Source of the DNA: a virus
Taxonomy: Duplodnaviria; Heunggongvirae; Uroviricota; Caudoviricetes
IMG/VR virus record: IMGVR_UViG_2531839475_000013
Length of the DNA: 38,377 nucleotides
Strand: one strand, 5' to 3'
In this document: positions 2,001-33,827 of the stretch, one piece after another
How the letters are laid out: the number at the start of each line of letters is the position of its first letter
Numbering within the stretch: position 1 is the stretch's first letter
Notes under the pieces: model-generated
Database searches by the model: none
What the model was told of the DNA's origin: nothing
The model's input: only the letters and a program-made list of their open reading frames with translations
Position numbers and translations under genes: made by a program

Positions 2001-2297
2001 TCAAATAGAGAAATAAACACAAAAACAAAAAACAACAGGAACAGCAAAATCCAACAGACTTCCCACATCCCACACGCGTGGATCAAAACCTCCCCACCAC
2101 GGCATGTTGATACGTTTCCCTTTCCCAAACTTTTCTATCCAGCGATATTCTGCCTGGGTGTGTTCACGCGCAATGAAGAACGTACAACCGGCTATCGCAC
2201 CGTAAGCCCAGTTTCCGGTAAAAATACCAACCAGTACCTGAGCCACAAAAGCGCAAAGCGAGTGAAGAAATGGAGTGACATCAATGCTCTTAATCAT
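2001..2297 (-). CDS. small membrane protein translationally coupled to the tailspike (function unknown)
   Basis: 98 aa; ATGA start/stop overlap with the tailspike at 2294..2297; two hydrophobic segments and a WWGGFDPRVWD motif; AT-rich. Confidence 0.5.
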   Translation of the reverse strand: MIKSIDVTPFLHSLCAFVAQVLVGIFTGNWAYGAIAGCTFFIAREHTQAEYRWIEKFGKGKRINMPWWGGFDPRVWDVGSLLDFAVPVVFCFCVYFSI

Positions 2298-4483
2298 GAA
2301 ACTTCCCCATTGGTTGAAAATATGGCTCCTCCAACGCCAAGTGTATTTCGTGTTGTGCTCAACCTCAGAGGGCTGGAGTCAGAATTAGAATATCCTGTAG
2401 CAGAAATAAAAGATCCTCCACTAATAGTCAACTGCGGAACATCGGCTATATCTGAATAAGTTCTGTCAGCAACAGTATTATTTATAGCCACATATGATCC
2501 AAAAAAACTTCTTATTGTTTGGTTTTTAACTTTACTTCCTTCAATGGTTATCCTACTACCACAGTCGGCAATAAATCCTGAATCTGCATCCAGCGTTGCA
2601 TTCATAAAAGAAGCTTCAGATCTCTCTACATCAATCCATCTAATATCTTTTGTGGGATTTGCACCAAATACATGACAAATATTAGAGTTAAACCTTACAC
2701 CATCTTGGAGGTGCATTAATTTTTTTATATCTGTACCCCATAGCCTTGGAAAATTAACAGATGCTCCTGCATGGCAATCAAATCCCAGCTCAGCCCCTGA
2801 GATATCTACAGCCTTTCCTGAAATAACAGCACCAGTGTCTGCATTAACGGCTGTTCCACAATTGCGCATATCATTACCAGCAACATCAACGCAACCCGCA
2901 CCATCAATACGCACACCAAGTGCACATCCATAAAAACCTTTTTCAATATTTGGTTCAAGGACTTTACCACTTGTTTCTGCATCACTTTCTTCAACGTCAT
3001 GTCGTCTTGCATCAACATATGCTGTATGAATGCAGGTTAATCCACGATATGAGCAATGTATAGTTTTATGGTCGCGTATATTAACATTTGAACCATCTCT
3101 TACATTCCATCCTATATAACAATAGCTTGCACTTGACCCCTGAAAATCTGCTTTAACATTATAAATACAATTAACTGACGCAACCGTACTCTCTGTGCAC
3201 CGTTCAAACTTGCTTACAGGCATTGATGCCTTGACATTATTTACCAGTTGCAGGGAAGAGTATCTGCTATAAGAAAAATCACATACGTAATACCCTTCTG
3301 GCATATATGCAGCAACACTTTCCTCATCAGGAGCACATCCGGTATGATATGCACTAATTTTTGCACCAAAACTACCATGAATTCCAACGTAGAACTTTCG
3401 AGCACCTGAATACGGATAGAAATTAAGTTCAGCTTTTTGAGTTACAATAAATGCACAAACATCGCTATCATCTCTATTTTCTTCGATCTGAATAGCAAAT
3501 ACAGGACTTTTTGCTGCATCGCAAATGTAAAATAAATACTTGTATTCGTAATACGTTCTAACGATTTTAGTAAACAAACGAGTGTCAGAGAAAACCACTG
3601 AGTCTTCTGATGTTATTTTAATCCAAGACAAATCAACACCTGAACTGAATTCAATTTGATAGTTGATAATATGCCCGGTCTTAATTCTTATTTCGCAGAA
3701 AGCATTACCACCATCCCACATAGGTCTCATTGACTGGGCTGCAATGATTGCATCTTTGAGTGTAGGGTAATCACCCCATTCGCCAACAGTAATAACAAAA
3801 GTATAATATGAGTTAAAAACAGCGGCATTTTTGCCTTTGGATATCAACTCCTTAATCATAAAAATATTATCTTCGTAATCACAAGGAGAAATTATATCCC
3901 TCATTTTGCTTTGAAATGTTCGTTGTCTTGCCCCGCTTCCTGACGGTATAAACCAACCAAAACCACCAACAACCCCGGCGATTGCAGCATCGACATAATT
4001 ACGCATTGAGCGATTATTTACAGCGTCCTGCTCAAATGATGGATCTGCAAGGTTAGAAATTTTGTTTTGCTTTGCATCGTAATATTTTGCAAGCAAAGAT
4101 GGTTTCATCAATGCACGTCTGAACCACCCAAAACATCGCTGGATCAGCATCGTCAGGTAGTCAAATGCATCTTCATGAACTTCGGGGAAAAATTTTCCCT
4201 GATTGCGAAGATCAGTCTCCTGCACCACATCAAGCACACGCTCTATCGTAATTCGCCAGCCAGCAGCAAGCGGCGACGGGAGAACCACTTCACCGCCACT
4301 ATAAGTGCCCGCTCCAGTTACCTTATAACCGGTATCCAGAACCAATTCTGTTACGTTCCCGTTCAGGTCAGACACCTGAACAACCAGGTCGGTTTTTTTG
4401 AAAATACGGAAGGTATACGGAAATGATGTCGTAACGCCGTTACCGGTGTATTCGTTGTGGTCAACTTCGGTTGAGACCGTCAT
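2294..4483 (-). CDS. tailspike / tail fibre protein (T7 gp17-like N-terminal anchor plus beta-helix-like receptor-binding domain)
   Basis: 729 aa; N-terminus (NEYTGNGVTTSFPYTFRIFKKTDLVV) resembles the conserved podophage fibre attachment domain; remainder is Gly/Asn/Ser/Thr-rich like pectin-lyase-fold spikes; GGAGAT RBS; C-terminal ~1.8 kb is AT-rich versus the N-terminal part. Confidence 0.8.
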   Translation of the reverse strand: MTVSTEVDHNEYTGNGVTTSFPYTFRIFKKTDLVVQVSDLNGNVTELVLDTGYKVTGAGTYSGGEVVLPSPLAAGWRITIERVLDVVQETDLRNQGKFFPEVHEDAFDYLTMLIQRCFGWFRRALMKPSLLAKYYDAKQNKISNLADPSFEQDAVNNRSMRNYVDAAIAGVVGGFGWFIPSGSGARQRTFQSKMRDIISPCDYEDNIFMIKELISKGKNAAVFNSYYTFVITVGEWGDYPTLKDAIIAAQSMRPMWDGGNAFCEIRIKTGHIINYQIEFSSGVDLSWIKITSEDSVVFSDTRLFTKIVRTYYEYKYLFYICDAAKSPVFAIQIEENRDDSDVCAFIVTQKAELNFYPYSGARKFYVGIHGSFGAKISAYHTGCAPDEESVAAYMPEGYYVCDFSYSRYSSLQLVNNVKASMPVSKFERCTESTVASVNCIYNVKADFQGSSASYCYIGWNVRDGSNVNIRDHKTIHCSYRGLTCIHTAYVDARRHDVEESDAETSGKVLEPNIEKGFYGCALGVRIDGAGCVDVAGNDMRNCGTAVNADTGAVISGKAVDISGAELGFDCHAGASVNFPRLWGTDIKKLMHLQDGVRFNSNICHVFGANPTKDIRWIDVERSEASFMNATLDADSGFIADCGSRITIEGSKVKNQTIRSFFGSYVAINNTVADRTYSDIADVPQLTISGGSFISATGYSNSDSSPLRLSTTRNTLGVGGAIFSTNGEVS

Positions 4484-4587
4484 GTTAAATCTCCAGATAG
4501 TCGCAGCACCCGTTGCGCCGCATATCCGGTTATTCTATTACCTGAAAAACCACATATGGATAGATAACCCATAAATACGAACAGATA

Positions 4588-4602
4588 TTACCTTTCAGGT
4601 GA
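4588..4602. promoter_or_regulatory. operator-like palindrome TTACCTTTCAGGTGA
   Basis: Member of the repeated TTACC-N5-GGTAA family; upstream of the LexA-box promoter of the small antirepressor-like gene. Confidence 0.55.
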
Positions 4603-4641
4603 TTCGCAAAACGTGCTGGATAGCAAACAAATTATTTGCTA

Positions 4642-4657
4642 CTGTATAAATATACAG
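4642..4657. promoter_or_regulatory. LexA (SOS) box CTGTATAAATATACAG
   Basis: Perfect CTGT-N8-ACAG with AT-rich spacer inside a sigma70-like promoter (TTGCTA 4636..4641; TATTGC 4659..4664), about 20 bp upstream of the ATG at 4679. Confidence 0.75.
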
Positions 4658-4678
4658 TTATTGCATGGAGAAGATAAG

Positions 4679-4936: not shown

Positions 4937-4967
4937 GGTTTGCAATTGCCAAGTGGAGTGCTTATAT

Positions 4968-4982
4968 TTACCTTTGCGGTAA
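4968..4982. promoter_or_regulatory. operator-like palindrome TTACCTTTGCGGTAA inside a larger inverted repeat
   Basis: Perfect TTACC-N5-GGTAA, flanked by GGAGTGC (4955..4961) and GCACTCC (4992..4998). Confidence 0.5.
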
Positions 4983-5076
4983 ATTTACATCGCACTCCTC
5001 TTGTGCCATAGTAATCGGGCACTGGCAAAATCCAGTGCCGGGATTGGCGTCCCGAGTTACTACAGAGGCACATATG

Positions 5077-5096
5077 CCGCATAAGCGGTTTTTTTT
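5077..5096 (+). terminator. weak intrinsic terminator (CCGC-ATAA-GCGG then T8)
   Basis: Short GC stem followed by eight T; lies between the small antirepressor-like gene and the Bro-N gene. Confidence 0.35.
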
Positions 5097-5249
5097 ATGT
5101 GTAAAGCGCACCTATTCTATGGTGGGCTGTGTGGGGGCACCGAAAGGTGCGCCGGGTCCTTTGTAGCCGGTTACGCCAACCCTGCACAGTTCACCACCAA
5201 CCGATTGGCGTCGGTAGTGGTGATTAACCTAACTACAAAGGTGATCACT

Positions 5250-5936
5250 ATGACTGCTAACGTAACCCCATCTGTTTTTCATTTTGAATCAGAAGCAACC
5301 ATTCGAGCCATTGTTATTGATGGAAATCCTTGGTTTGTTGCCAAAGACGTTATTAAAGCTCTTCAACTGACAAACCCCACTATGTCAATAAAATCTCTTG
5401 ATGATGATGAAAGGGCTAAATTTAACTTAGGCCGTCAAGGCGAAACCAATATTATCAACGAGTCAGGCCTCTACACACTGATCCTCCGCTGCCGCGATGC
5501 AGTAACACCAGGCACTATCCCCTACCGCTTTCGCAAATGGGTTACAGGTGAGGTACTTCCTCAGATCCGCCGCACCGGAAGTTACATTAAAAACTCGCTC
5601 CCGCAAGAAGAACGCATAAAGATGGTTGCCGACCAGGTAGCCAACGCCACGGCGTCAGCAGTGATGCAGGCAATGAAGATAGAGAACAAAACCTACAGCG
5701 CCCCACTGAAGCCCGGCTACCGCAGCCTGATTCACTCGCCGTCTGGTGTTCTCGGCCTGACGGAGAACTCACTGCTGATGAATCTGCTGAACCAGTTACA
5801 GGAAGACGGGCACGACGTATCGGGCGCGGCGGCGGAGCTGACCACCATGTTCTGCTACATCGTCGGTGTGAGTAAATGCCTGCGTGATATCCAGACCCAC
5901 GCGGAATACATCAACGACAAAGCAGGGTTCTTCTGA
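5250..5936 (+). CDS. Bro-N domain antirepressor
   Basis: N-terminal region (VIDGNPWFVAKDVIKALQL...) matches the Bro-N/antirepressor DNA-binding domain; RBS AAAGGTGA; start chosen at the ATG at 5250 rather than the ORF-track start at 5097. Confidence 0.7.
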   Translation: MTANVTPSVFHFESEATIRAIVIDGNPWFVAKDVIKALQLTNPTMSIKSLDDDERAKFNLGRQGETNIINESGLYTLILRCRDAVTPGTIPYRFRKWVTGEVLPQIRRTGSYIKNSLPQEERIKMVADQVANATASAVMQAMKIENKTYSAPLKPGYRSLIHSPSGVLGLTENSLLMNLLNQLQEDGHDVSGAAAELTTMFCYIVGVSKCLRDIQTHAEYINDKAGFF

Positions 5937-5978: not shown

Positions 5979-6021
5979 TTGCAGACTGGGGGTGAATAGC
6001 GTACTATTACCTTAAAGGTAA
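5979..6021 (+). promoter_or_regulatory. sigma70-like promoter (TTGCAG-17-TACTAT) overlapped by operator TTACCTTAAAGGTAA (6007..6021)
   Basis: Hexamers with 17-bp spacing; perfect TTACC-N5-GGTAA palindrome over the -10/+1 region, immediately upstream of the accessory cassette. Confidence 0.5.
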
Positions 6022-6047
6022 ACCATGTGTTTACATGAGGAGGAGAT

Positions 6048-6257
6048 ATGGGATTTTGGTTCGCTCGTACAAAAACGAGGGATAATGCACCCAGCCCTCA
6101 GGCAAAAAATGCAGAAGTTCCGGCGTCAGCGCAGGTTAACAAGCGTGGTGGTGTGTATATCTCATCACAGCAAATTTCTGAGCTTCCTGAGGTTAAGGAG
6201 ATGCGTCGTCTCGCTGCTGCAATCGTTAAACAGGATCTTGCCACTGTAAGGAAATAG
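6048..6257 (+). CDS. small hypothetical protein, first gene of the accessory cassette
   Basis: 69 aa; strong RBS GAGGAGGAG; stop overlaps the GTG start of the next gene (TAGTG). Confidence 0.5.
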   Translation: MGFWFARTKTRDNAPSPQAKNAEVPASAQVNKRGGVYISSQQISELPEVKEMRRLAAAIVKQDLATVRK

Positions 6258-7751: not shown

Positions 7752-7763
7752 GTGACATGTCAC
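7752..7763. repeat. perfect 12-bp palindrome GTGACATGTCAC (copy 1 of 3)
   Basis: Identical 12-mer also at 25171..25182 and 27436..27447; abuts the terminator hairpin. Confidence 0.8.
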
Positions 7764-19786: not shown

Positions 19787-20224
19787 TTAACCAGTTACTT
19801 TTGAGCGGATCGGGTACGGCGTATTGGCATCAACATCCAGACTGATACCCGCAGTGAATTTGCCGGCCGTTAGTGGGCCAGTTGCGACGGAGTAGTTAAC
19901 ACGCAGATATCGCTGAACACCGGCTGGCACCTTTGCAGAAACAACTCGCTTACCTGCTGTCAGGGTGGCCTTTGCCAACGCACCACTATCATAAATAGTG
20001 GTCCAAGAGCTGTTATTCTCACTCGTCTGCAACTGGATGTTTACAGTTGCCTCACCACTTGCCGTGGCGGCTTCGTTAACCAGCCCCCAAAACTCAAGCG
20101 GGTAACCCACACCGATATCGCGACGGTTTCCATCAATTGGACCGAGATCGATTACGTCAGTAGAAGCCGCGGTATTCGTAACCGCCTGAGCTTCGGAGAA
20201 CATCAACAGTTTGTCGGTGATCAT
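19787..20224 (-). CDS. putative capsid decoration / minor capsid protein
   Basis: 145 aa, Thr/Ser/Ala-rich, immediately downstream of the major capsid gene. Confidence 0.4.
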   Translation of the reverse strand: MITDKLLMFSEAQAVTNTAASTDVIDLGPIDGNRRDIGVGYPLEFWGLVNEAATASGEATVNIQLQTSENNSSWTTIYDSGALAKATLTAGKRVVSAKVPAGVQRYLRVNYSVATGPLTAGKFTAGISLDVDANTPYPIRSKVTG

Positions 20225-23961: not shown

Positions 23962-24168
23962 TTACTGACCAAGCAGCGTTTTACCGCTGGTATTAGCGGT
24001 TGATGTGTCGCCCTGAGAACCGGTAAGCAGCGTAGAACTACGACCAGCAGCAGCGCGACGGCGACGTGTTTCTTCGTCGCGGGCATCAACAACGGCGGCA
24101 TCCTGCTCCTGTGGTGCTGCCTGAACTTCTGGTGTTGCAGGCACTGATGGTGAGCTACCCATGCACAT
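23962..24168 (-). CDS. small Ser/Thr/Ala-rich protein upstream of portal (hypothetical)
   Basis: 68 aa with a GGAG RBS at correct spacing; ends 15 nt before the portal start; low-complexity, so coding status is uncertain. Confidence 0.3.
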   Translation of the reverse strand: MCMGSSPSVPATPEVQAAPQEQDAAVVDARDEETRRRRAAAGRSSTLLTGSQGDTSTANTSGKTLLGQ

Positions 24169-24236
24169 ATCAATGACTCCGTACGCAATTAAATTATTAC
24201 CAATTTAACCACATATGATTTATTTATCGTAGATAG

Positions 24237-24273
24237 TTGACATTTAACGCACAAATTATTACCTTTCAGGTAA
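24237..24273 (+). promoter_or_regulatory. promoter (-35 TTGACA at 24237..24242) with operator TTACCTTTCAGGTAA (24259..24273)
   Basis: Consensus -35 hexamer; perfect TTACC-N5-GGTAA over the -10/+1 region; module resembles 4530..4605 and 30185..30275. Confidence 0.5.
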
Positions 24274-24594
24274 CCAAAGAGTTCATTCCGGTTACTAACC
24301 TGACTGGCTTGTCGTTAAATTGAACAGGTGGAGTGAGCTTTTATTTTGAGCAGTACGGCGTATGGCACATGCGCCGATAGCGGTCTGGATACGTTTAAGG
24401 GGCACCCTCCCTTGCTCGGGCAAACGAACCAGGTAGCCGGAATGTGCAAGTCGAGCGGTTTTATTCCGCGCACGGGGATTCACCATCCCGGCGATTCGGG
24501 TGACGCCTCGGAAGAGACGAGGGTACAACGATGAGAGCATTTATGGAGCCGCGACAAAGTGTGGCGCCTTAACAGGCTAAGTGCTCTCAGCGTT

Positions 24595-24671
24595 GTGGCA
24601 TTAGCTCAGCTGGACAGAGCAACCGCCTTCTAAGCGGTTGGTCGCAGGTTCGAATCCTGCATGCCACGCCA
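24595..24671 (+). tRNA. tRNA-Arg (anticodon UCU)
   Basis: Hand-folded cloverleaf: acceptor GTGGCAT/ATGCCAC, D-arm GCTC-AGCTGGACA-GAGC, anticodon stem ACCGC/GCGGT with loop CTTCTAA (anticodon TCT), T-arm GCAGG-TTCGAAT-CCTGC, discriminator G, encoded CCA. Confidence 0.9.
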
Positions 24672-24714
24672 GAATCACGCCTAAGGACCGTGATGCCAGA
24701 AGTTCCAGGTGCTT

Positions 24715-24757
24715 GGCGGTGATGGTTTCCCTTGAAGGACTATCACCGCCCTTTTTA
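24715..24757 (+). terminator. intrinsic terminator after the tRNA (9-bp stem GGCGGTGAT/ATCACCGCC, then CTTTTTA)
   Basis: Perfect 9-bp stem with 18-nt loop followed by a T-run. Confidence 0.6.
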
Positions 24758-24835
24758 CAGCAGGACGCCATTGCGATGACTTCATGCTGTAAACCCGTAC
24801 AGCAACGGAAGGCATAACTCATTGCTTCCAGTTCG

Positions 24836-24858
24836 CCCGGTTCGCCGGGCATTTTTTT
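24836..24858 (+). terminator. second terminator/attenuator (CCCGG-TTCG-CCGGG then T7) abutting the RBS of the next gene
   Basis: GC stem with tetraloop followed by CATTTTTTT; the AAGGTGA RBS of the DUF2829-like gene follows directly. Confidence 0.55.
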
Positions 24859-24869
24859 AAGGTGAGATT

Positions 24870-25166
24870 ATGAGCGAAACATCAACAGTATCTTTCTCCA
24901 CTGCTTTGTCATCACTCAAAGATGGTAAGCGCATTGCACGTGCCGGATGGAATGGCAAAGGCATGTATCTGCAACTGGTTAAGCCACCGCAATCGGCCAC
25001 TCCGAACGATTGGCGATTTGACGTTACATGCGGTGACGAGTATACATTTGTACCTGGCGTTAAACTTCTACCGTGGATTGGGATGAAAACTGCTGACGGT
25101 TGCTTTGTACCGTGGCTGGCATCTCAAACCGATCTGCTATCTGATGATTGGATTGTAATTCAATAA
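24870..25166 (+). CDS. DUF2829-like small protein (Tad2-like candidate anti-defence sponge)
   Basis: 98 aa; N-terminal ALSSLKDGKRIARAGWNGKGMYLQLV and C-terminal ASQTDLLSDDWIVIQ match my recollection of the DUF2829 signature; RBS AAGGTGA. Not verified by HMM. Confidence 0.5.
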   Translation: MSETSTVSFSTALSSLKDGKRIARAGWNGKGMYLQLVKPPQSATPNDWRFDVTCGDEYTFVPGVKLLPWIGMKTADGCFVPWLASQTDLLSDDWIVIQ

Positions 25167-25170
25167 CACC

Positions 25171-25182
25171 GTGACATGTCAC
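25171..25182. repeat. perfect 12-bp palindrome GTGACATGTCAC (copy 2 of 3)
   Basis: Starts 5 nt after the stop of the DUF2829-like gene and 4 nt before the terminator hairpin. Confidence 0.8.
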
Positions 25183-27325: not shown

Positions 27326-27368
27326 AACCACCGTGGTAATAGTTACCGTTGTGGTAATAGTACCATGC

Positions 27369-27435: not shown

Positions 27436-27447
27436 GTGACATGTCAC
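27436..27447. repeat. perfect 12-bp palindrome GTGACATGTCAC (copy 3 of 3)
   Basis: Overlaps the stop codon of the zinc-ribbon gene, ~45 bp upstream (minus-strand sense) of the terminator before TerS. Confidence 0.8.
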
Positions 27448-27782
27448 ACTATTAATTTCGTTTCATGCCAGCCTTTAGTCACCCAGCATTGCGAGTCACC
27501 ATTACACGGGCATGAATTAACTGGAACTCTCTCGCCGCACTTACCGCAACGTTTTCTGCTGATCGATTTTATACGCCCGCGCACGCGTGCATCATCCTGG
27601 CGGATCAGTAACGCTACATACTCACCAAATTCGTAAGGCGCACGCCCGGGGCGACGCGTGGCACAGTTACGCTCCAGCATTTCAATTTCCTGAGCATCAA
27701 GCACAATTTCCAGCTTACGCACACCAGATGCAGCTTGTCTAGCTCTCTGAGCGGCTTTGCGCTCTGCTGCTGATTTAGCCAT
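27444..27782 (-). CDS. small basic protein with C-terminal Cys-rich zinc-ribbon-like motif (candidate late-gene regulator)
   Basis: 112 aa; Arg/Lys-rich N-terminus, C-terminal CGKCGERVPVNSCPCNGDSQC; last gene before the terminator/TerS junction. Confidence 0.35.
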   Translation of the reverse strand: MAKSAAERKAAQRARQAASGVRKLEIVLDAQEIEMLERNCATRRPGRAPYEFGEYVALLIRQDDARVRGRIKSISRKRCGKCGERVPVNSCPCNGDSQCWVTKGWHETKLIV

Positions 27783-29847: not shown

Positions 29848-30192
29848 TCAGAACTCTTCGATGTTCCAGCCACCACCTGCTTTCTTTGGTTTAACCGTTA
29901 CCCCGATGATTCGGAACGGATACTGATCTGCGGCGACTTTGGTTTTCACCCTGGCGTCGTCGGTCCAGAAACCTTTCACTTCGTGTAGTTCCATCTCGCC
30001 GGTGGCGAGCATCACAGCAAAATCGGGCGTATAGAACGTGTTGTCAGCTAACCGCAGCTTGATACCCTCGAATCGATACCAGGCGATTTCCCCTGCACGT
30101 TTACGCTGCTCAAGGTGCTGGCAATACGCAGATTCTGTTTTGTTCATTTGGCCTGTTTTGAGTCGACCAAGAGCCTGTATCTGTTTTCTCAT
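29848..30192 (-). CDS. DUF1064/VRR-NUC-like small phage protein (putative nuclease fold)
   Basis: 114 aa with YTPDFAVM...ELHEVKG pattern resembling small phage nuclease-fold proteins; the operator 30196..30210 sits right at its start/RBS. Confidence 0.4.
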   Translation of the reverse strand: MRKQIQALGRLKTGQMNKTESAYCQHLEQRKRAGEIAWYRFEGIKLRLADNTFYTPDFAVMLATGEMELHEVKGFWTDDARVKTKVAADQYPFRIIGVTVKPKKAGGGWNIEEF

Positions 30193-30195
30193 GAT

Positions 30196-30271
30196 TTACC
30201 CCTTAGGTAATTAAAAACCACATAAGACATAAAATCAATAGAGATTAGAACATTTTATTACCCTGCAGGTA
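30196..30271. promoter_or_regulatory. pair of perfect operator palindromes (TTACCCCTTAGGTAA 30196..30210; TTACCCTGCAGGTAA 30257..30271)
   Basis: Two perfect TTACC-N5-GGTAA sites 61 bp apart between the P-like gene stop and the next early gene start; intervening AACCACATA motif also seen in the other modules. Confidence 0.55.
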
Positions 30272-30309
30272 ATCATGTAGGCGTAAAAAAATGCGCTATC
30301 GCGCTGGTA

Positions 30310-32516: not shown

Positions 32517-32579
32517 TCACCTATAAGGTAACAAAAATCAAGGATAGTTACCCATGAGGTGCATTTACCTGTTGGGTAA
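32517..32579. promoter_or_regulatory. immunity-region operators: three TTACC-N5-GGTAA-type sites (32517..32531, 32548..32562, 32565..32579)
   Basis: TCACCTATAAGGTAA, TTACCCATGAGGTGC, TTACCTGTTGGGTAA in the spacer between the divergent cro-like and repressor genes. Confidence 0.6.
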
Positions 32580-32634: not shown

Positions 32635-33219
32635 ATGAAAAGTATCCAGGACGTCCGCAGGCAAAATCTCAACGACTTGATCGACCGTGAATTCAATGGT
32701 GTTCAGACGCGGATGGCTGAAAAACTTGGAACTCAGGCAAATCTGGTAAACCGCTGGGCTCTTGGCAAGAAGGTTATCGGCGACCAGGTTGCGCGAAAAA
32801 TTGAAGCTGCCGCCAATAAACCCCGTAACTGGCTTGATATCGATCGCTCGCTTTCTCAGGAAGGTTTTCAGCCTGTCGGACCAAGCGACATTGGTCAACT
32901 GGCGGCTCACAACCTGGAACGCTGGATGAGCGAAAGCCGCGACCTTTCAACGCAGGGAAAACTTCACCGCGCATCCGGCGTCGCCCAGGTGACAATCAGC
33001 CGCCTGTTAAACAATGAGGTCAGCGTTTCCATTTCCACCCTGGAGAATGTTGCATCCGCATTCGGGCGTCACGGCTATGAATTACTGATTCACCCGCACG
33101 ACCCTGCGACTATCAACTATGACCGCTCGCGCTACGCTTTGTTACCCGAAACCGAGAAAGCAAAGATCGAAAGTTACATTGAATTTGTCATCAACCAGAA
33201 CGAAAAAAACAAACAATAA
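32635..33219 (+). CDS. prophage repressor, two HTH domains, no S24 peptidase domain
   Basis: 194 aa; two HTH-like segments (TRMAEKLGTQANLVNRWALGKK and ASGVAQVTISRLLNNEVSVS); no Ala-Gly/Ser-Lys autocleavage module visible; little or no RBS, so possibly leaderless. Confidence 0.6.
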   Translation: MKSIQDVRRQNLNDLIDREFNGVQTRMAEKLGTQANLVNRWALGKKVIGDQVARKIEAAANKPRNWLDIDRSLSQEGFQPVGPSDIGQLAAHNLERWMSESRDLSTQGKLHRASGVAQVTISRLLNNEVSVSISTLENVASAFGRHGYELLIHPHDPATINYDRSRYALLPETEKAKIESYIEFVINQNEKNKQ

Positions 33220-33276: not shown

Positions 33277-33353
33277 TTACCTAACGGGTAATTTTTTTAA
33301 CTCATATCTATTGACATCAAACCATATACGCATAATTATTACCTCAACGGTAA
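33277..33353 (+). promoter_or_regulatory. early promoter (-35 TTGACA 33311..33316) bracketed by two perfect operators (33277..33291 and 33339..33353)
   Basis: TTACCTAACGGGTAA and TTACCTCAACGGTAA; the proximal one overlaps the -10/+1 of a promoter driving the recombination operon. Confidence 0.55.
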
Positions 33354-33527: not shown

Positions 33528-33827
33528 ATGAACGTTAATCAGCAGAAAAATCTTCAAAAAATCATGCTGGCATTCGACAAGGACTACCGTCTGTCAGAAC
33601 AGCTATATGACCGACAAGTTGAACTGATTGAGAGTATCCGGCTTCATCAACTGGCATCAACTTTCGACGTTGTAACAGTTAAAGGCGTTCGCCAGGAAGT
33701 ACTGGAGGCCGCTAAAGACAGCCCTGAGTTCGAAGAACTAATGGATGCCTACCGGCGCGAGGCAATGGCAATTATCGCCCGCTGGGATCTGGCTGATCAG
33801 CTTGATGGGCAGAGGGACGCGGCATGA
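33528..33827 (+). CDS. hypothetical early protein
   Basis: 99 aa from the ATG at 33528 (RBS GGGAGGG); 4-nt overlap with the exonuclease gene. Confidence 0.4.
   Translation: MNVNQQKNLQKIMLAFDKDYRLSEQLYDRQVELIESIRLHQLASTFDVVTVKGVRQEVLEAAKDSPEFEELMDAYRREAMAIIARWDLADQLDGQRDAA

Follow-up and report, generated by a model that had tools for sequence, protein, structure and literature searches.

The three look-alike segments found in a 38,377-nucleotide stretch of viral DNA (the window) are best explained, with a probability of about 0.7, as repressor-controlled promoter regions of the Uetakevirus backbone, in which each leftward core promoter is accompanied by paired positions for the prophage repressor Rep. 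These segments share a set of sites and are not copies of an 80-bp cassette. The window is a phiV10/ε15-like (Uetakevirus) prophage of E. coli, 97% identical to phage phiv142-3 and also related to ε15, and prophages of this type are very common in E. coli. The operator sites themselves are already annotated in ε15 and the finding is to that extent an ordinary one. Segment 2 is alone in having a distal operator that overlaps, in addition, a predicted plus-strand promoter directed at a variable moron slot.

The original prediction described a common layout for the three segments, and every element that it listed was found at its indicated place. Each segment combines a full TTACC-N5-GGTRA palindrome (the distal operator), an exact copy of the 9-mer AACCACATA and a second, half or full, palindrome (the proximal site). 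The 9-mer is located at 4548, 24207 and 30216, reads AACCACATA on the plus strand in all cases and has no other exact copy in the 38 kb. The proximal site is a TTACC half-site at 4538 and 24197 and a full site at 30196-30210, and its gap to the 9-mer amounts to exactly 5 bp in the three segments. The paired sites are 50 bp apart in segment 1 and 62 bp apart in segments 2 and 3. Other parts of the description did not withstand measurement: the interval from the 9-mer to the distal site, given as uniform at about 40 bp, is 40, 52 and 42 bp, and the motif ATTATTACC occurs literally in segment 2 only, TATTACC being what all three have in common. When the intervals from the 9-mer to the distal operator were aligned globally, with shuffles as the control, the p values came to 0.03, 0.33 and 0.46, in disagreement with a similarity extending over some 80 bp. 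Because the resemblance is confined to discrete sites and the DNA between the elements is unlike, a portable cassette of that size finds no support.

A pattern search for TTACC-N5-GGTRA returned 20 strand-matches, or 11 sites, in the window where 0.06 were expected. The half-site positions match at 10/10 at 24259 and 30258, and at 9/10 at 4588 (GGTGA). The distal operators and the sites located elsewhere are listed below, with the strand indicated where one applies:

4588-4602, distal Rep operator of segment 1 (TTACCTTTCAGGTGA), from the pattern search; its ε15 orthologue (19895-19911) is annotated as a repressor site
24259-24273, distal Rep operator of segment 2 (TTACCTTTCAGGTAA); its ε15 orthologue (2931-2947) is annotated 'protein_bind repressor'
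30258-30272, distal Rep operator of segment 3 (TTACCCTGCAGGTAA); its ε15 orthologue (35906-35922) is annotated as a repressor site
33277-33353, plus strand, PL-type region with operators at 33277-33291 and 33339-33353, which repeat the 62-bp spacing
33311-33339, plus strand, PL promoter TTGACA-17-AATTAT, whose spacer holds the 9-mer variant AACCATATA (33320-33328)
32517-32531 and 32565-32579, operators between the cro-like gene and rep
27343-27357, operator directly upstream of terS, adjoining a degenerate second site; the ε15 site (12-27) is annotated
4940-4982, plus strand, isrK/C4 RNA/Bro-N-Ant promoter TTGCAA-17-TATATT, its start site covered by operator 4968-4982
6007-6021, Rep operator 3 bp upstream of ORF 6025-6249

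That these palindromes belong to the prophage's own repressor circuit, as had been proposed, is borne out by the annotated ε15 sites and by the Rep homologue encoded in the element:

32635-33219, plus strand, repressor (Rep), full-length homologue of SPC32H Rep (PDB 5D50_A)

The match to 5D50_A covers residues 1-190 (E = 4e-42). A Pfam search identified an HTH_3 domain in this protein and no match to peptidase S24. The Bro-N protein matches SPC32H Ant at its C-terminus. The same combination of a homologous repressor lacking a Pfam S24 match and a Bro-N/Ant antirepressor is encountered in ε15 (AY150271.2) and SPC32H (5D50), which also share the 17-bp consensus ATTACC-N5-GGTAAT. SPC32H Rep is reported to bind DNA in tetrameric form, through two pairs of DNA-binding domains (PMC9638917). 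The operator sequence changes with repressor specificity: the heteroimmune Providencia prophage L013, whose Rep is 33% identical, has another operator type, ATAAACA-N3-TGTTTAT, at PL-like and post-replication positions and carries its own half-site type, TGTTTAT, just before the gp3 ribosome-binding site. Sequence comparison thereby supports the palindromes of the three segments as operators of the prophage's own SPC32H-type repressor, the cognate gene being carried by the same element. A literature text search for one candidate form of the consensus, ATTACCWDWWNGGTAAT, gave no match.

The ε15 record (AY150271.2) marks 'protein_bind repressor' before terS, gp3, the tailspike gene and gp43, and at PL; ε15 and the window thus share operators before terS, gp3, the tailspike gene and the gene after replication, and at PL. 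The three orthologous ε15 sites listed above sit in modules that align with segments 1, 2 and 3, 9-mer included. The record differs in marking only single full sites, and it carries no annotation of the 50/62-bp pairs, the proximal half-sites, the 9-mer, the divergent TTGACA promoter or the lysis-gene module. The latter is a fourth module, located before the lysis genes in ε15 and phiV10, downstream of opposite-strand serotype-conversion morons. The gp3 module is kept in 12/13 prophage loci from different genera. The degenerate form T[AT]T[AG][AT]GGTT of the 9-mer is present at orthologous positions in ε15, phiV10, phiv142-3 and BUCT554, and at the gp3 position in 9/13 enterobacterial prophage loci, the three Rahnella-type loci carrying TAATATGGTT.

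The 9-mer and the proximal site of each segment point to a core gene on the minus strand, and not to plus-strand cargo as the original prediction had it:

4532-4560, minus strand, predicted tailspike promoter TCCATA-17-TAGAAT (-35 TCCATA at 4560-4555, -10 TAGAAT at 4537-4532)
2294-4483, minus strand, tailspike gene, served by segment 1
24207-24215, minus strand, 9-mer of segment 2, TATGTGGTT (AACCACATA on the plus strand)
24197-24201, proximal operator half-site of segment 2 (GGTAA on the minus strand), 62 bp from the distal site
24191-24219, minus strand, putative gp3/portal promoter ATCATA-17-TAATTT (-35 ATCATA at 24219-24214, -10 TAATTT at 24196-24191)
23962-24168, minus strand, gp3-like gene, first of the head/portal operon, from tblastn synteny (phrog_831)
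30196-30238, minus strand, predicted leftward promoter of segment 3 (-35 TTGATT at 30238-30233, 17-bp spacer, -10 TTTAAT at 30215-30210)
29848-30192, minus strand, DUF1064 gene (Pfam PF06356), served by segment 3 and the first to follow the replication-gene terminator

The spacer of the tailspike promoter holds TGTGGTT and the GGTAA half-site (4542-4538), with the 9-mer at 4548-4556. Across 38 distinct natural variants the blocks of this promoter are invariant and their flanks variable, and in the recombinant L023 the region is kept only from ATCCATA onward, placing the breakpoint just upstream of the -35. The corresponding promoter of ε15 and BUCT554 reads TTCATA-17-TAGAAT/TAAACT. The gp3/portal promoter is tentatively assigned from its likeness to the tailspike module; the block TAT[GA]TGGTTAAATTGGTAATAATTTAAT found there is nearly invariant across genera. 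In segment 3, the 9-mer (30216-30224) lies inside the spacer and the proximal full operator (30196-30210) over the predicted transcription start, a -10/operator geometry identical to that of PL and of the 4968 promoter; this leftward promoter is kept as TTGAAA-17-TTAAAT in ε15 and L007. A generic sigma70 scan recovers PL and the 4968 promoter and misses all three leftward promoters, whose hexamers were read by eye, the first (TCCATA-17-TAGAAT) being backed by the variant footprint and the breakpoint.

Segment 2 additionally faces a slot on the plus strand:

24237-24265, plus strand, rightward promoter-like element facing the moron slot (-35 TTGACA at 24237-24242, 17-bp spacer, -10 TACCTT at 24260-24265 inside the operator)
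24354-24594, plus strand, structured RNA leader, first cargo of the rightward promoter, from covariation (5' domain 24354-24530)
24595-24671, plus strand, tRNA-Arg(UCU), at the position of a tRNA-like variable insert in relatives
24870-25166, plus strand, Tad2-like (formerly DUF2829) gene (Pfam PF11195, E = 3e-24)

The slot of the window thus contains the RNA leader, the tRNA and the Tad2-like gene, the latter preceded by two terminator-like hairpins (24715-24750 and 24835-24850, terminator scan). The distal operator of segment 2 is kept in 12/13 enterobacterial prophage loci, and TTGAC[A/G] stands exactly 16 nt from TTACC in 12/12 loci with the operator, the spacer sequence being variable. 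The strict pattern TTGAC[AGT]-N16-TTACC was found in 27/35 IMG/VR Uetakevirus contexts, and the remaining eight have TTGACC or TTGGCA at the same spacing when read by eye. In more than 40 relatives the predicted rightward -35 keeps this 16-nt distance to the operator, over a spacer of variable sequence. The element TTGACA-17-TACCTT escapes the generic sigma70 scan because its -10 fits the consensus at only 3/6 positions (T1, A2 and T6). From its sequence, this promoter would put the moron slot under Rep control.

These observations bear on the proposal that copies of a single promoter-operator cassette of about 80 bp, arisen by duplication, accompany acquired genes of the plus strand and plug them into the repressor circuit. 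Operators do precede plus-strand cargo at 24259, 4968 and 6007, the slots beside the modules hold different genes in different relatives, and L013, which has no terL-gp3 insert, lacks both the distal operator and the TTGACA promoter. Against this stand the non-homologous DNA between the sites and the synteny of the three modules in ε15, where the adjoining cargo differs or is absent; all copies found (in ε15, phiV10, BUCT554 and the prophage loci) occupy the same backbone junctions. Plus-strand promoters were sought in segments 1 and 3 and rejected, as neither has a -35 at the spacing that segment 2 conserves. Segment 3, besides, is followed on the plus strand by no gene start, only by the 3' end of the convergent replication gene. 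What moves, in the case of segment 2, is the cargo: the same RNA-led cassette is found across phage families, each time behind that family's own, unrelated promoter-operator. Alignment and synteny largely refute the travelling cassette, which we consider quite improbable. What persists of the proposal is the wiring of acquired, opposite-strand genes to the prophage's own repressor, through operator 24259 with its TTGACA promoter directed to the slot and through operator 4968 before the isrK/C4/antirepressor unit; in relatives, extra operator-promoters precede other morons as well.

The significance of the 9-mer requires separate consideration. It could be a mere coincidence of AT-rich promoter DNA, the palindromes alone being meaningful: a 9-mer common to at least three operator neighbourhoods arose in 198/5000 flank shuffles (about 4%), which makes the within-window statistic only moderate, and one-mismatch copies (16 observed, 8.4 expected) are not clearly enriched. 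The three exact copies nevertheless share strand, order and the exact 5-bp offset, and the 9-mer is kept at orthologous sites in distant relatives where the neighbouring bases vary, leaving coincidence very improbable. BUCT554 has an exact AACCACATA at the PL position, an observation that speaks against chance for the copy AACCATATA at 33320 of the window; the PL copy is probably real, though inverted relative to PL. Several known elements were considered for the 9-mer. By eye, it agrees with the IHF consensus WATCAANNNNTTR at 5-7 of 9 specified positions at best and inconsistently, and the ε15 record places its predicted IHF sites in other parts of the modules. A DnaA box (TGTGNAWAA) matches at 8/9 in segment 2 and at only 6/9 in segments 1 and 3, and CRP, sigma54 (-24/-12) and Fis sites, compared by eye, gave no consistent fit. 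An extended -10 (TRTGn) was rejected as the hexamers that follow (TTAAAT, TTTTTA and TTTTTC) have no -11 A; the G/A polymorphism of the 9-mer falls on the R of this motif.

Because it is kept in a relative with a different operator sequence, the 9-mer appears distinct from the Rep operator and would be a promoter-specific recognition element, contacted by RNA polymerase or by a dedicated factor. In L013, indeed, TTTATGGTT stands 6 nt before the full operator that follows the replication genes. The opposite reading makes the 9-mer a degenerate extra Rep contact, the flexibly tethered N-terminal domains of the tetramer settling on palindrome, half-site and 9-mer. (A/T)AACC does resemble a TTACC half-site and is separated from the proximal site by one helical turn, the 5-bp gap of all three segments imposing a 10-bp phasing between TTACC/GGTAA and AACCA. 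Among natural variants, the bases that separate GGTT from GGTAAT vary and their flanks are fixed, like the N5 of a true operator, and Rep is reported to pair domains drawn from different dimers (PMC9638917). This reading has to contend with the persistence of the 9-mer beside the other operator type in L013, with the lysis and PL copies that have no adjacent half-site, and with a half-site match of only 3-4/5 in direct rather than inverted orientation; we hold it to be unlikely.

A further reading extends the preferred explanation instead of opposing it. The 9-mer TATGTGGTT, together with the weak -35, would be the site of a second regulator, either a phage late activator or a host factor; Rep would keep the modules shut in the lysogen, and this factor would activate them in lytic growth. 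Conservation of the 9-mer across genera and in heteroimmune L013 is independent of Rep specificity, the promoters that carry it have poor -35 hexamers and escape the consensus scan, and the genes that it precedes for the tailspike, the head and lysis have late functions. Promoter spacers hold it in either orientation; its inversion in the PL spacer is more in keeping with a bound factor than with a core promoter element. A conserved candidate activator is encoded at the end of the early operon:

27444-27782, Zn-finger/arginine-rich protein of the ε15 gp49 family (phrog_536, 'transcriptional regulator')

Binding of the 9-mer by a protein is, on the other hand, conjectural. The region upstream of terS has no 9-mer, the early DUF1064 promoter and PL do possess it, making it not exclusively late, and its distance to the best -10 candidate varies (10 nt for tailspike and gp3, 7 nt for the lysis genes of ε15 and phiV10, 1 nt for DUF1064). 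None of the 120 homologues listed, of 668, for the candidate protein has an informative name, and this gp49 homologue has no Pfam, NCBIfam or PDB sequence match. A second regulator is possible but rather doubtful.

The explanation that we favor, paired Rep positions at each leftward core promoter, would operate as follows. Each segment would offer Rep two positions, a full ATTACC-N5-GGTAAT and, at a distance of 50 or 62 bp (roughly five or six helical turns), a second operator, full or half. A Rep tetramer bound to both positions simultaneously could silence the promoter located between them, although the half-sites may not bind Rep at all. The promoters common to the three segments would be the leftward ones, restarting the transcription of core genes past a terminator or an opposite insert: tailspike in segment 1, gp3/portal and head in segment 2 and the DUF1064/nin-like block in segment 3. 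The 9-mer would be placed inside these promoters, abutting or overlapping the weak -35, 5 bp from the proximal operator and in helical register with it. In segment 2, the distal operator, lying over the -10 of the divergent TTGACA-17-TACCTT, would bring the slot under Rep as well.

The first cargo of the rightward promoter deserves attention in its own right. The RNA 5' domain, of about 150-175 nt, comprises six covariation-supported helices and is followed by a long hairpin (ACAACG...CGTTGT) that abuts the tRNA. After the 5' domain and the long hairpin come a tRNA or a variable tRNA-acceptor-like insert, intrinsic terminators (one or two) and, last, a gene that varies and is of early or anti-defence type. 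In unrelated temperate phages this RNA is found directly behind immunity-repressor-controlled promoters: in the P1/P7 ban operon, in ε15-like phages, and at PL in SfV-like, cdtI and Stx2c phages. Of complete E. coli genomes, 34% carry the RNA, as do P1/P7, and it is unannotated in every record examined, several deposited phage records carrying spurious ORF calls on the opposite strand. Rfam covariance models (including tmRNA, group I introns, ROOL and GOLLD), run on the window and the L006 slots at the gathering score and at a permissive E <= 1-5, matched only tRNA; blastn-short of the RNA against the HK022 genome (putL, putR) produced only chance 10-17-mers, and full-text literature searches for its conserved strings gave no match. 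At somewhat less than even odds, the rightward promoter of segment 2 drives an undescribed class of structured phage RNA, which may act in cis on polymerase or RNA processing, one possibility being terminator read-through like that of HK022 put. As in HK022, a cis RNA would lie just downstream of repressor-controlled early promoters and ahead of intrinsic terminators; the two differ in having no sequence similarity, in length (about 160 nt or longer here, about 70 nt for put) and in the tRNA or tRNA-like linkage found here.

Comparable regulatory networks are known. In the C1 regulon of phage P1 (Op(ban), Op51), one immunity repressor directly controls many scattered operons, among them an isrK/C4-antirepressor (immI-like) unit and a tRNA operon with the same structured RNA. 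P1 operators are, however, asymmetric 17-mers that do not resemble the Rep sites, nor is C1 a relative of Rep; in the window, even the structural and tailspike operons carry operators. Mycobacteriophage L5 possesses 'stoperators', many repressor sites distributed through early and late operons. These are asymmetric 13-mers placed inside transcription units in one orientation, whereas the sites of the window are palindromes located at promoters. The OL/OR regions of phage λ likewise have two or more helically phased sites per promoter, over the -10, the start and upstream DNA, but the pairs of the window are 50-62 bp apart and not adjacent; moreover, the repressor is reported here as a preformed tetramer, with induction through an antirepressor instead of RecA cleavage. 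Lambdoid morons occupy similar slots (terL-gp3, pre-tailspike, pre-lysis) with variable opposite-strand genes that have their own promoter and terminator. In contrast to classical lysogenic-conversion morons, the immunity operator overlays the promoter here and the insert is predicted to be silent in the lysogen.

The present analysis provides a corrected regulatory map of these prophages, in which nearly every operon (head, tailspike and, in relatives, lysis) begins at a promoter that paired sites of a single tetrameric repressor are predicted to guard. Opposite-strand morons lie between the end of one operon, marked by a palindrome and a terminator, and the next guarded start. This guarded layout explains how anti-defence and tRNA cargo could stay silent in the lysogen and be released together by the antirepressor.

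The window carries a Uetakevirus prophage that is 97% identical to Escherichia phage phiv142-3 across most of its 38 kb and is also close to phiV10 and TL-2011b; its packaging genes share about 80% identity with those of Salmonella phage ε15. The replication, packaging, head, injection, tailspike and lysis genes lie on the minus strand, and the plus strand carries the genes for the repressor and for recombination, together with the antirepressor and tRNA-Arg/DUF2829 blocks. The gene at 32635-33219 encodes a protein with HTH domains that is homologous over its full length to Rep, the SPC32H repressor (PDB 5D50_A, E = 4e-42); the domain search returned no S24 peptidase match for it. The Bro-N protein (5097-5936) is similar to the SPC32H antirepressor at its C-terminal end. 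The ε15 GenBank record places 'protein_bind: repressor' annotations, of consensus ATTACC-N5-GGTAAT, before terS, gp3, the tailspike gene and the gene after the replication genes, and also at PL, the operator/promoter region near rep. Since annotated ε15 sites are orthologous to the three look-alike stretches of about 80 bp analyzed here (segments 1, 2 and 3, at 4530..4605, 24195..24275 and 30185..30275), these operators are already known for this phage group.

The original prediction interpreted the segments as a duplicated block serving as a mobile cassette that connects acquired genes to the repressor circuit. The elements it named were found in all three. TTACC-N5-GGT[AG]A has 11 sites in the window (20 strand-matches against 0.06 expected), and an exact 9-mer, AACCACATA, has three copies, all on the plus strand and one per segment. 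Every segment presents the same order: a proximal site, a gap of exactly 5 bp, the 9-mer, 31-43 bp and a full palindrome, with proximal-to-distal distances of 50, 62 and 62 bp in segments 1, 2 and 3.

4538: half-site, proximal site of segment 1
4588: full palindrome, distal site of segment 1
24197: half-site, proximal site of segment 2
24259: full palindrome, distal site of segment 2
30196: full site, proximal site of segment 3
30258: full palindrome, distal site of segment 3

Because the sequences that separate the 9-mer from the distal palindrome show no significant similarity between segments (p = 0.03, 0.33, 0.46), the resemblance amounts to a common set of short elements, and the duplicated 80-bp block has to be abandoned. 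The same applies to the mobile cassette, the segments being syntenic backbone promoter regions directed at core genes. Some common 9-mer arose in 198 of 5000 shuffles, which makes the shared motif only moderately unlikely by chance within the window alone; we consider it real because it is conserved elsewhere. The ε15 sites orthologous to segments 2, 1 and 3 carry TATGTGGTT, TATAAGGTT and TTTGTGGTT at its position.

Read on the minus strand, each segment starts with the distal operator, which a variable stretch separates from a weak -35; TATGTGGTT comes next, then 5 bp, the proximal site and a core gene. Among 38 distinct natural variants of the tailspike upstream region, segment 1 retains two invariant blocks, CTATCCATAT-TGGTTTT and GGTAATAGAAT, and varies only within the operator N5, in the stretch past the distal operator, at the R of the motif and in the three bases that precede GGTAAT; in one recombinant (L023), foreign DNA reaches up to ATCCATA of this region. 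These blocks and this breakpoint support a predicted tailspike promoter, TCCATA (-35) and TAGAAT (-10) 17 bp apart, whose counterparts in ε15 and BUCT554 are TTCATA-17-TAGAAT/TAAACT. Segment 3, located past a short terminator that comes after the replication gene, contains TTGATT-17-TTTAAT, the last -10 base being the first base of the proximal operator, a geometry common to PL (33311-33339) and to a promoter at 4940-4968; the DUF1064 gene starts 4 bp past the segment 3 operator. In segment 2, the block TAT[GA]TGGTTAAATTGGTAATAATTTAAT is nearly invariant among prophages of Scandinavium, Kluyvera, Citrobacter, Buttiauxella, Pseudescherichia, Erwinia and others, and the sequence closer to the distal operator is variable; by analogy with the tailspike module, TAATTT would be the -10 of the gp3 promoter. 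A generic consensus promoter scan of the window detected none of these three predicted leftward promoters, which would be weak or factor-dependent.

A fourth module of this kind precedes the lysis genes of ε15 and phiV10, where the serotype-conversion or oac genes on the opposite strand lie upstream of it.

24704-24761 in ε15: lysis module
about 24692-24749 in phiV10: lysis module

The ε15 operator (24704-24718), absent from the annotation of that record, is followed by TATGTGGTT/TATATGGTT and its phiV10 counterpart has one mismatch; a near-perfect -10 comes next (TATGAT in ε15, TATAAT in phiV10). At about 33700-33790 on the minus strand of ε15, between gp39 (cro-like) and gp40 and opposite the early-right genes, TATATGGTT-TTTTA-TTACCAGAAAGGTGT is followed by ATG; this module-like arrangement, also found in two relatives (L007 and L015) and without exact counterpart in the window, may be a small gene or a promoter for antisense transcription.

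On sequence grounds, the 9-mer appears to be no part of the Rep operator. The specificity control is a heteroimmune Providencia alcalifaciens prophage (L013) whose Rep is only 33% identical. It carries a different palindrome, ATAAACA-N3-TGTTTAT, at the PL-like and post-replication positions and a TGTTTAT half-site directly before gp3; five direct TGTTTAT repeats also lie between its rep and cro-like genes. This operator type and these repeats are at L013 positions 237-550, 1244-1350, 3483-3515 and 9745. L013 keeps TTTATGGTT, the sole plus-strand match of the degenerate 9-mer motif in its 21.6-kb locus, 6 nt from a full operator of this different type, and constitutes a useful natural specificity swap. 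We rank first the reading of the 9-mer as a putative recognition element for some dedicated factor; the host-factor consensus sequences tried gave no match. A contact for RNA polymerase ranks second and an auxiliary Rep contact third. In the tailspike, gp3 and lysis modules, the motif overlaps or adjoins the weak -35; it falls within the spacer of the DUF1064 promoter and is inverted within that of PL. It stands one helical turn from the proximal site. The dedicated factor is possibly the conserved Zn-finger/arginine-rich protein encoded at 27444-27782 on the minus strand, an ε15 gp49 homologue assigned to phrog_536 ('transcriptional regulator'). Its arginine-rich N-terminus, MAKSAAERKAAQRARQ, is reminiscent of N-protein ARMs, cysteines C40, C79, C82 and C91 are invariant and C93 and C99 nearly so, and its gene immediately precedes a palindrome, a strong terminator, operators and terS. 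None of the 120 homologues listed, of 668, bears an informative name; the protein is a candidate late regulator or antiterminator.

On the plus strand of segment 2, 12 of 13 prophage loci have TTGAC[A/G] at a distance of exactly 16 nt from the operator. The strict pattern recurs in 27 of 35 IMG/VR Uetakevirus contexts, and the others show by eye TTGACC or TTGGCA at unchanged spacing. Fixed distance together with 16 freely varying nucleotides is the signature of a -35, whose predicted -10 (TACCTT) falls inside the operator; no comparable plus-strand -35 was found in segments 1 and 3. This predicted rightward promoter is directed at the terL/gp3 slot, an insert of 890-1580 bp with a different opposite-strand ORF in nearly all relatives; Sf6 gp66-like products and unknowns of 139-273 aa are encoded there. 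L013 has no such insert, no distal operator and no TTGACA. The 'DUF2829' gene of the window (24870-25166, plus strand) matches Pfam Tad2-like (Thoeris anti-defence 2, E = 3e-24), so that the slot likely holds an anti-defence gene under Rep control. The original prediction is partly supported: the repressor circuit also reaches acquired genes, but the look-alike segments are not its mobile vehicle.

The predicted rightward transcript opens with a conserved non-coding region.

24354-24594 (about), plus strand: conserved non-coding region
24595-24671: tRNA-Arg
24715-24750: terminator-like hairpin
24835-24850: terminator-like hairpin
24295-24540, minus strand: ORF of 81 aa, antisense
24601-24852, minus strand: ORF of 83 aa, antisense

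Covariation strongly supports a structured RNA leader: in an alignment of 27 non-redundant copies, 27 consensus pairs are paired in 98.8% of cells, 11 of them with compensatory changes (shuffle mean 5.9; none of 500 shuffles reached 11), for a covariation score of 0.289 versus 0.129 (slid controls at most 0.09). No Rfam family matches it, and our limited literature search found no description. At least 120 IMG/VR contigs contain a 17-mer from this leader. The Uetakevirus operator precedes it in only 35 of them; in the rest, it comes with unrelated promoter-operator units or follows a tRNA. The element lies between trnI and ban in P1/P7, in P7 within the operon under the C1 operator Op(ban); directly past the CI-like repressor gene of mEp460, in PL position and beneath spurious ORF calls; at PL position in SfV-like, cdtI and Stx2c phages; and in Klebsiella phages. 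Its 5' domain is present in 1831 of 5426 complete E. coli genomes; among 25 records listed, 24 are featureless under the match and one has a hypothetical protein. Relatives carry at the tRNA position variable inserts closed by a tRNA-acceptor-like helix (GTTGTGGTG...CACCACAAC, then CCA). The leader shares no sequence similarity with HK022 put RNAs; because it lies between early promoters and terminators, a put-like function or one in processing is worth testing. The two ORFs antisense to the structured RNA and the tRNA, the second annotated in phiV10 as PhiV10p04, match no family and probably do not represent real genes.

The plus-strand antirepressor block is similar to P1 immI and carries signals of its own.

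4640-4658: LexA-box-like palindrome TACTGTATAAATATACAGT, before the first ORF of the block
4940-4968, plus strand: Rep-operated predicted promoter TTGCAA-17-TATATT, operator at 4968
5019-5095: isrK (Rfam), past this promoter, overlapping the Bro-N/Ant gene start
5115-5201: C4 antisense RNA (Rfam), past this promoter, overlapping the Bro-N/Ant gene start

According to a secondary description, SPC32H Rep is a DNA-binding tetramer in which the domain pairs reading each palindrome are drawn from different dimers, a single tetramer being enough for repression (PMC9638917). Paired sites are separated by 62 bp in segments 2 and 3 and PL, 50 bp in segment 1 and 48 bp in the cro/rep region, distances that would fit one tetramer on two positions on roughly one DNA face; so bound, it would enclose the promoter.

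A perfect palindrome, GTGACATGTCAC, occurs at 7752-7763, 25171-25182 and 27436-27447 (three copies against 0.07 expected), each time between a stop codon and an intrinsic terminator along transcription, at three operon ends. Syntenic copies exist in ε15, phiV10 and BUCT554, and L013 has two, counted without regard to location; it appears to be another site for protein binding, independent of immunity, that marks operon ends. As predicted from its promoters and operators, the genome is a chain of operons, every one starting at a putative Rep-guarded promoter. Opposite-strand inserts sit between the end of one operon and the start of the next: the terL/gp3 slot and the antirepressor block in the window, gp19 and the serotype-conversion genes in ε15, oac in phiV10 and gtrABC in BUCT554.
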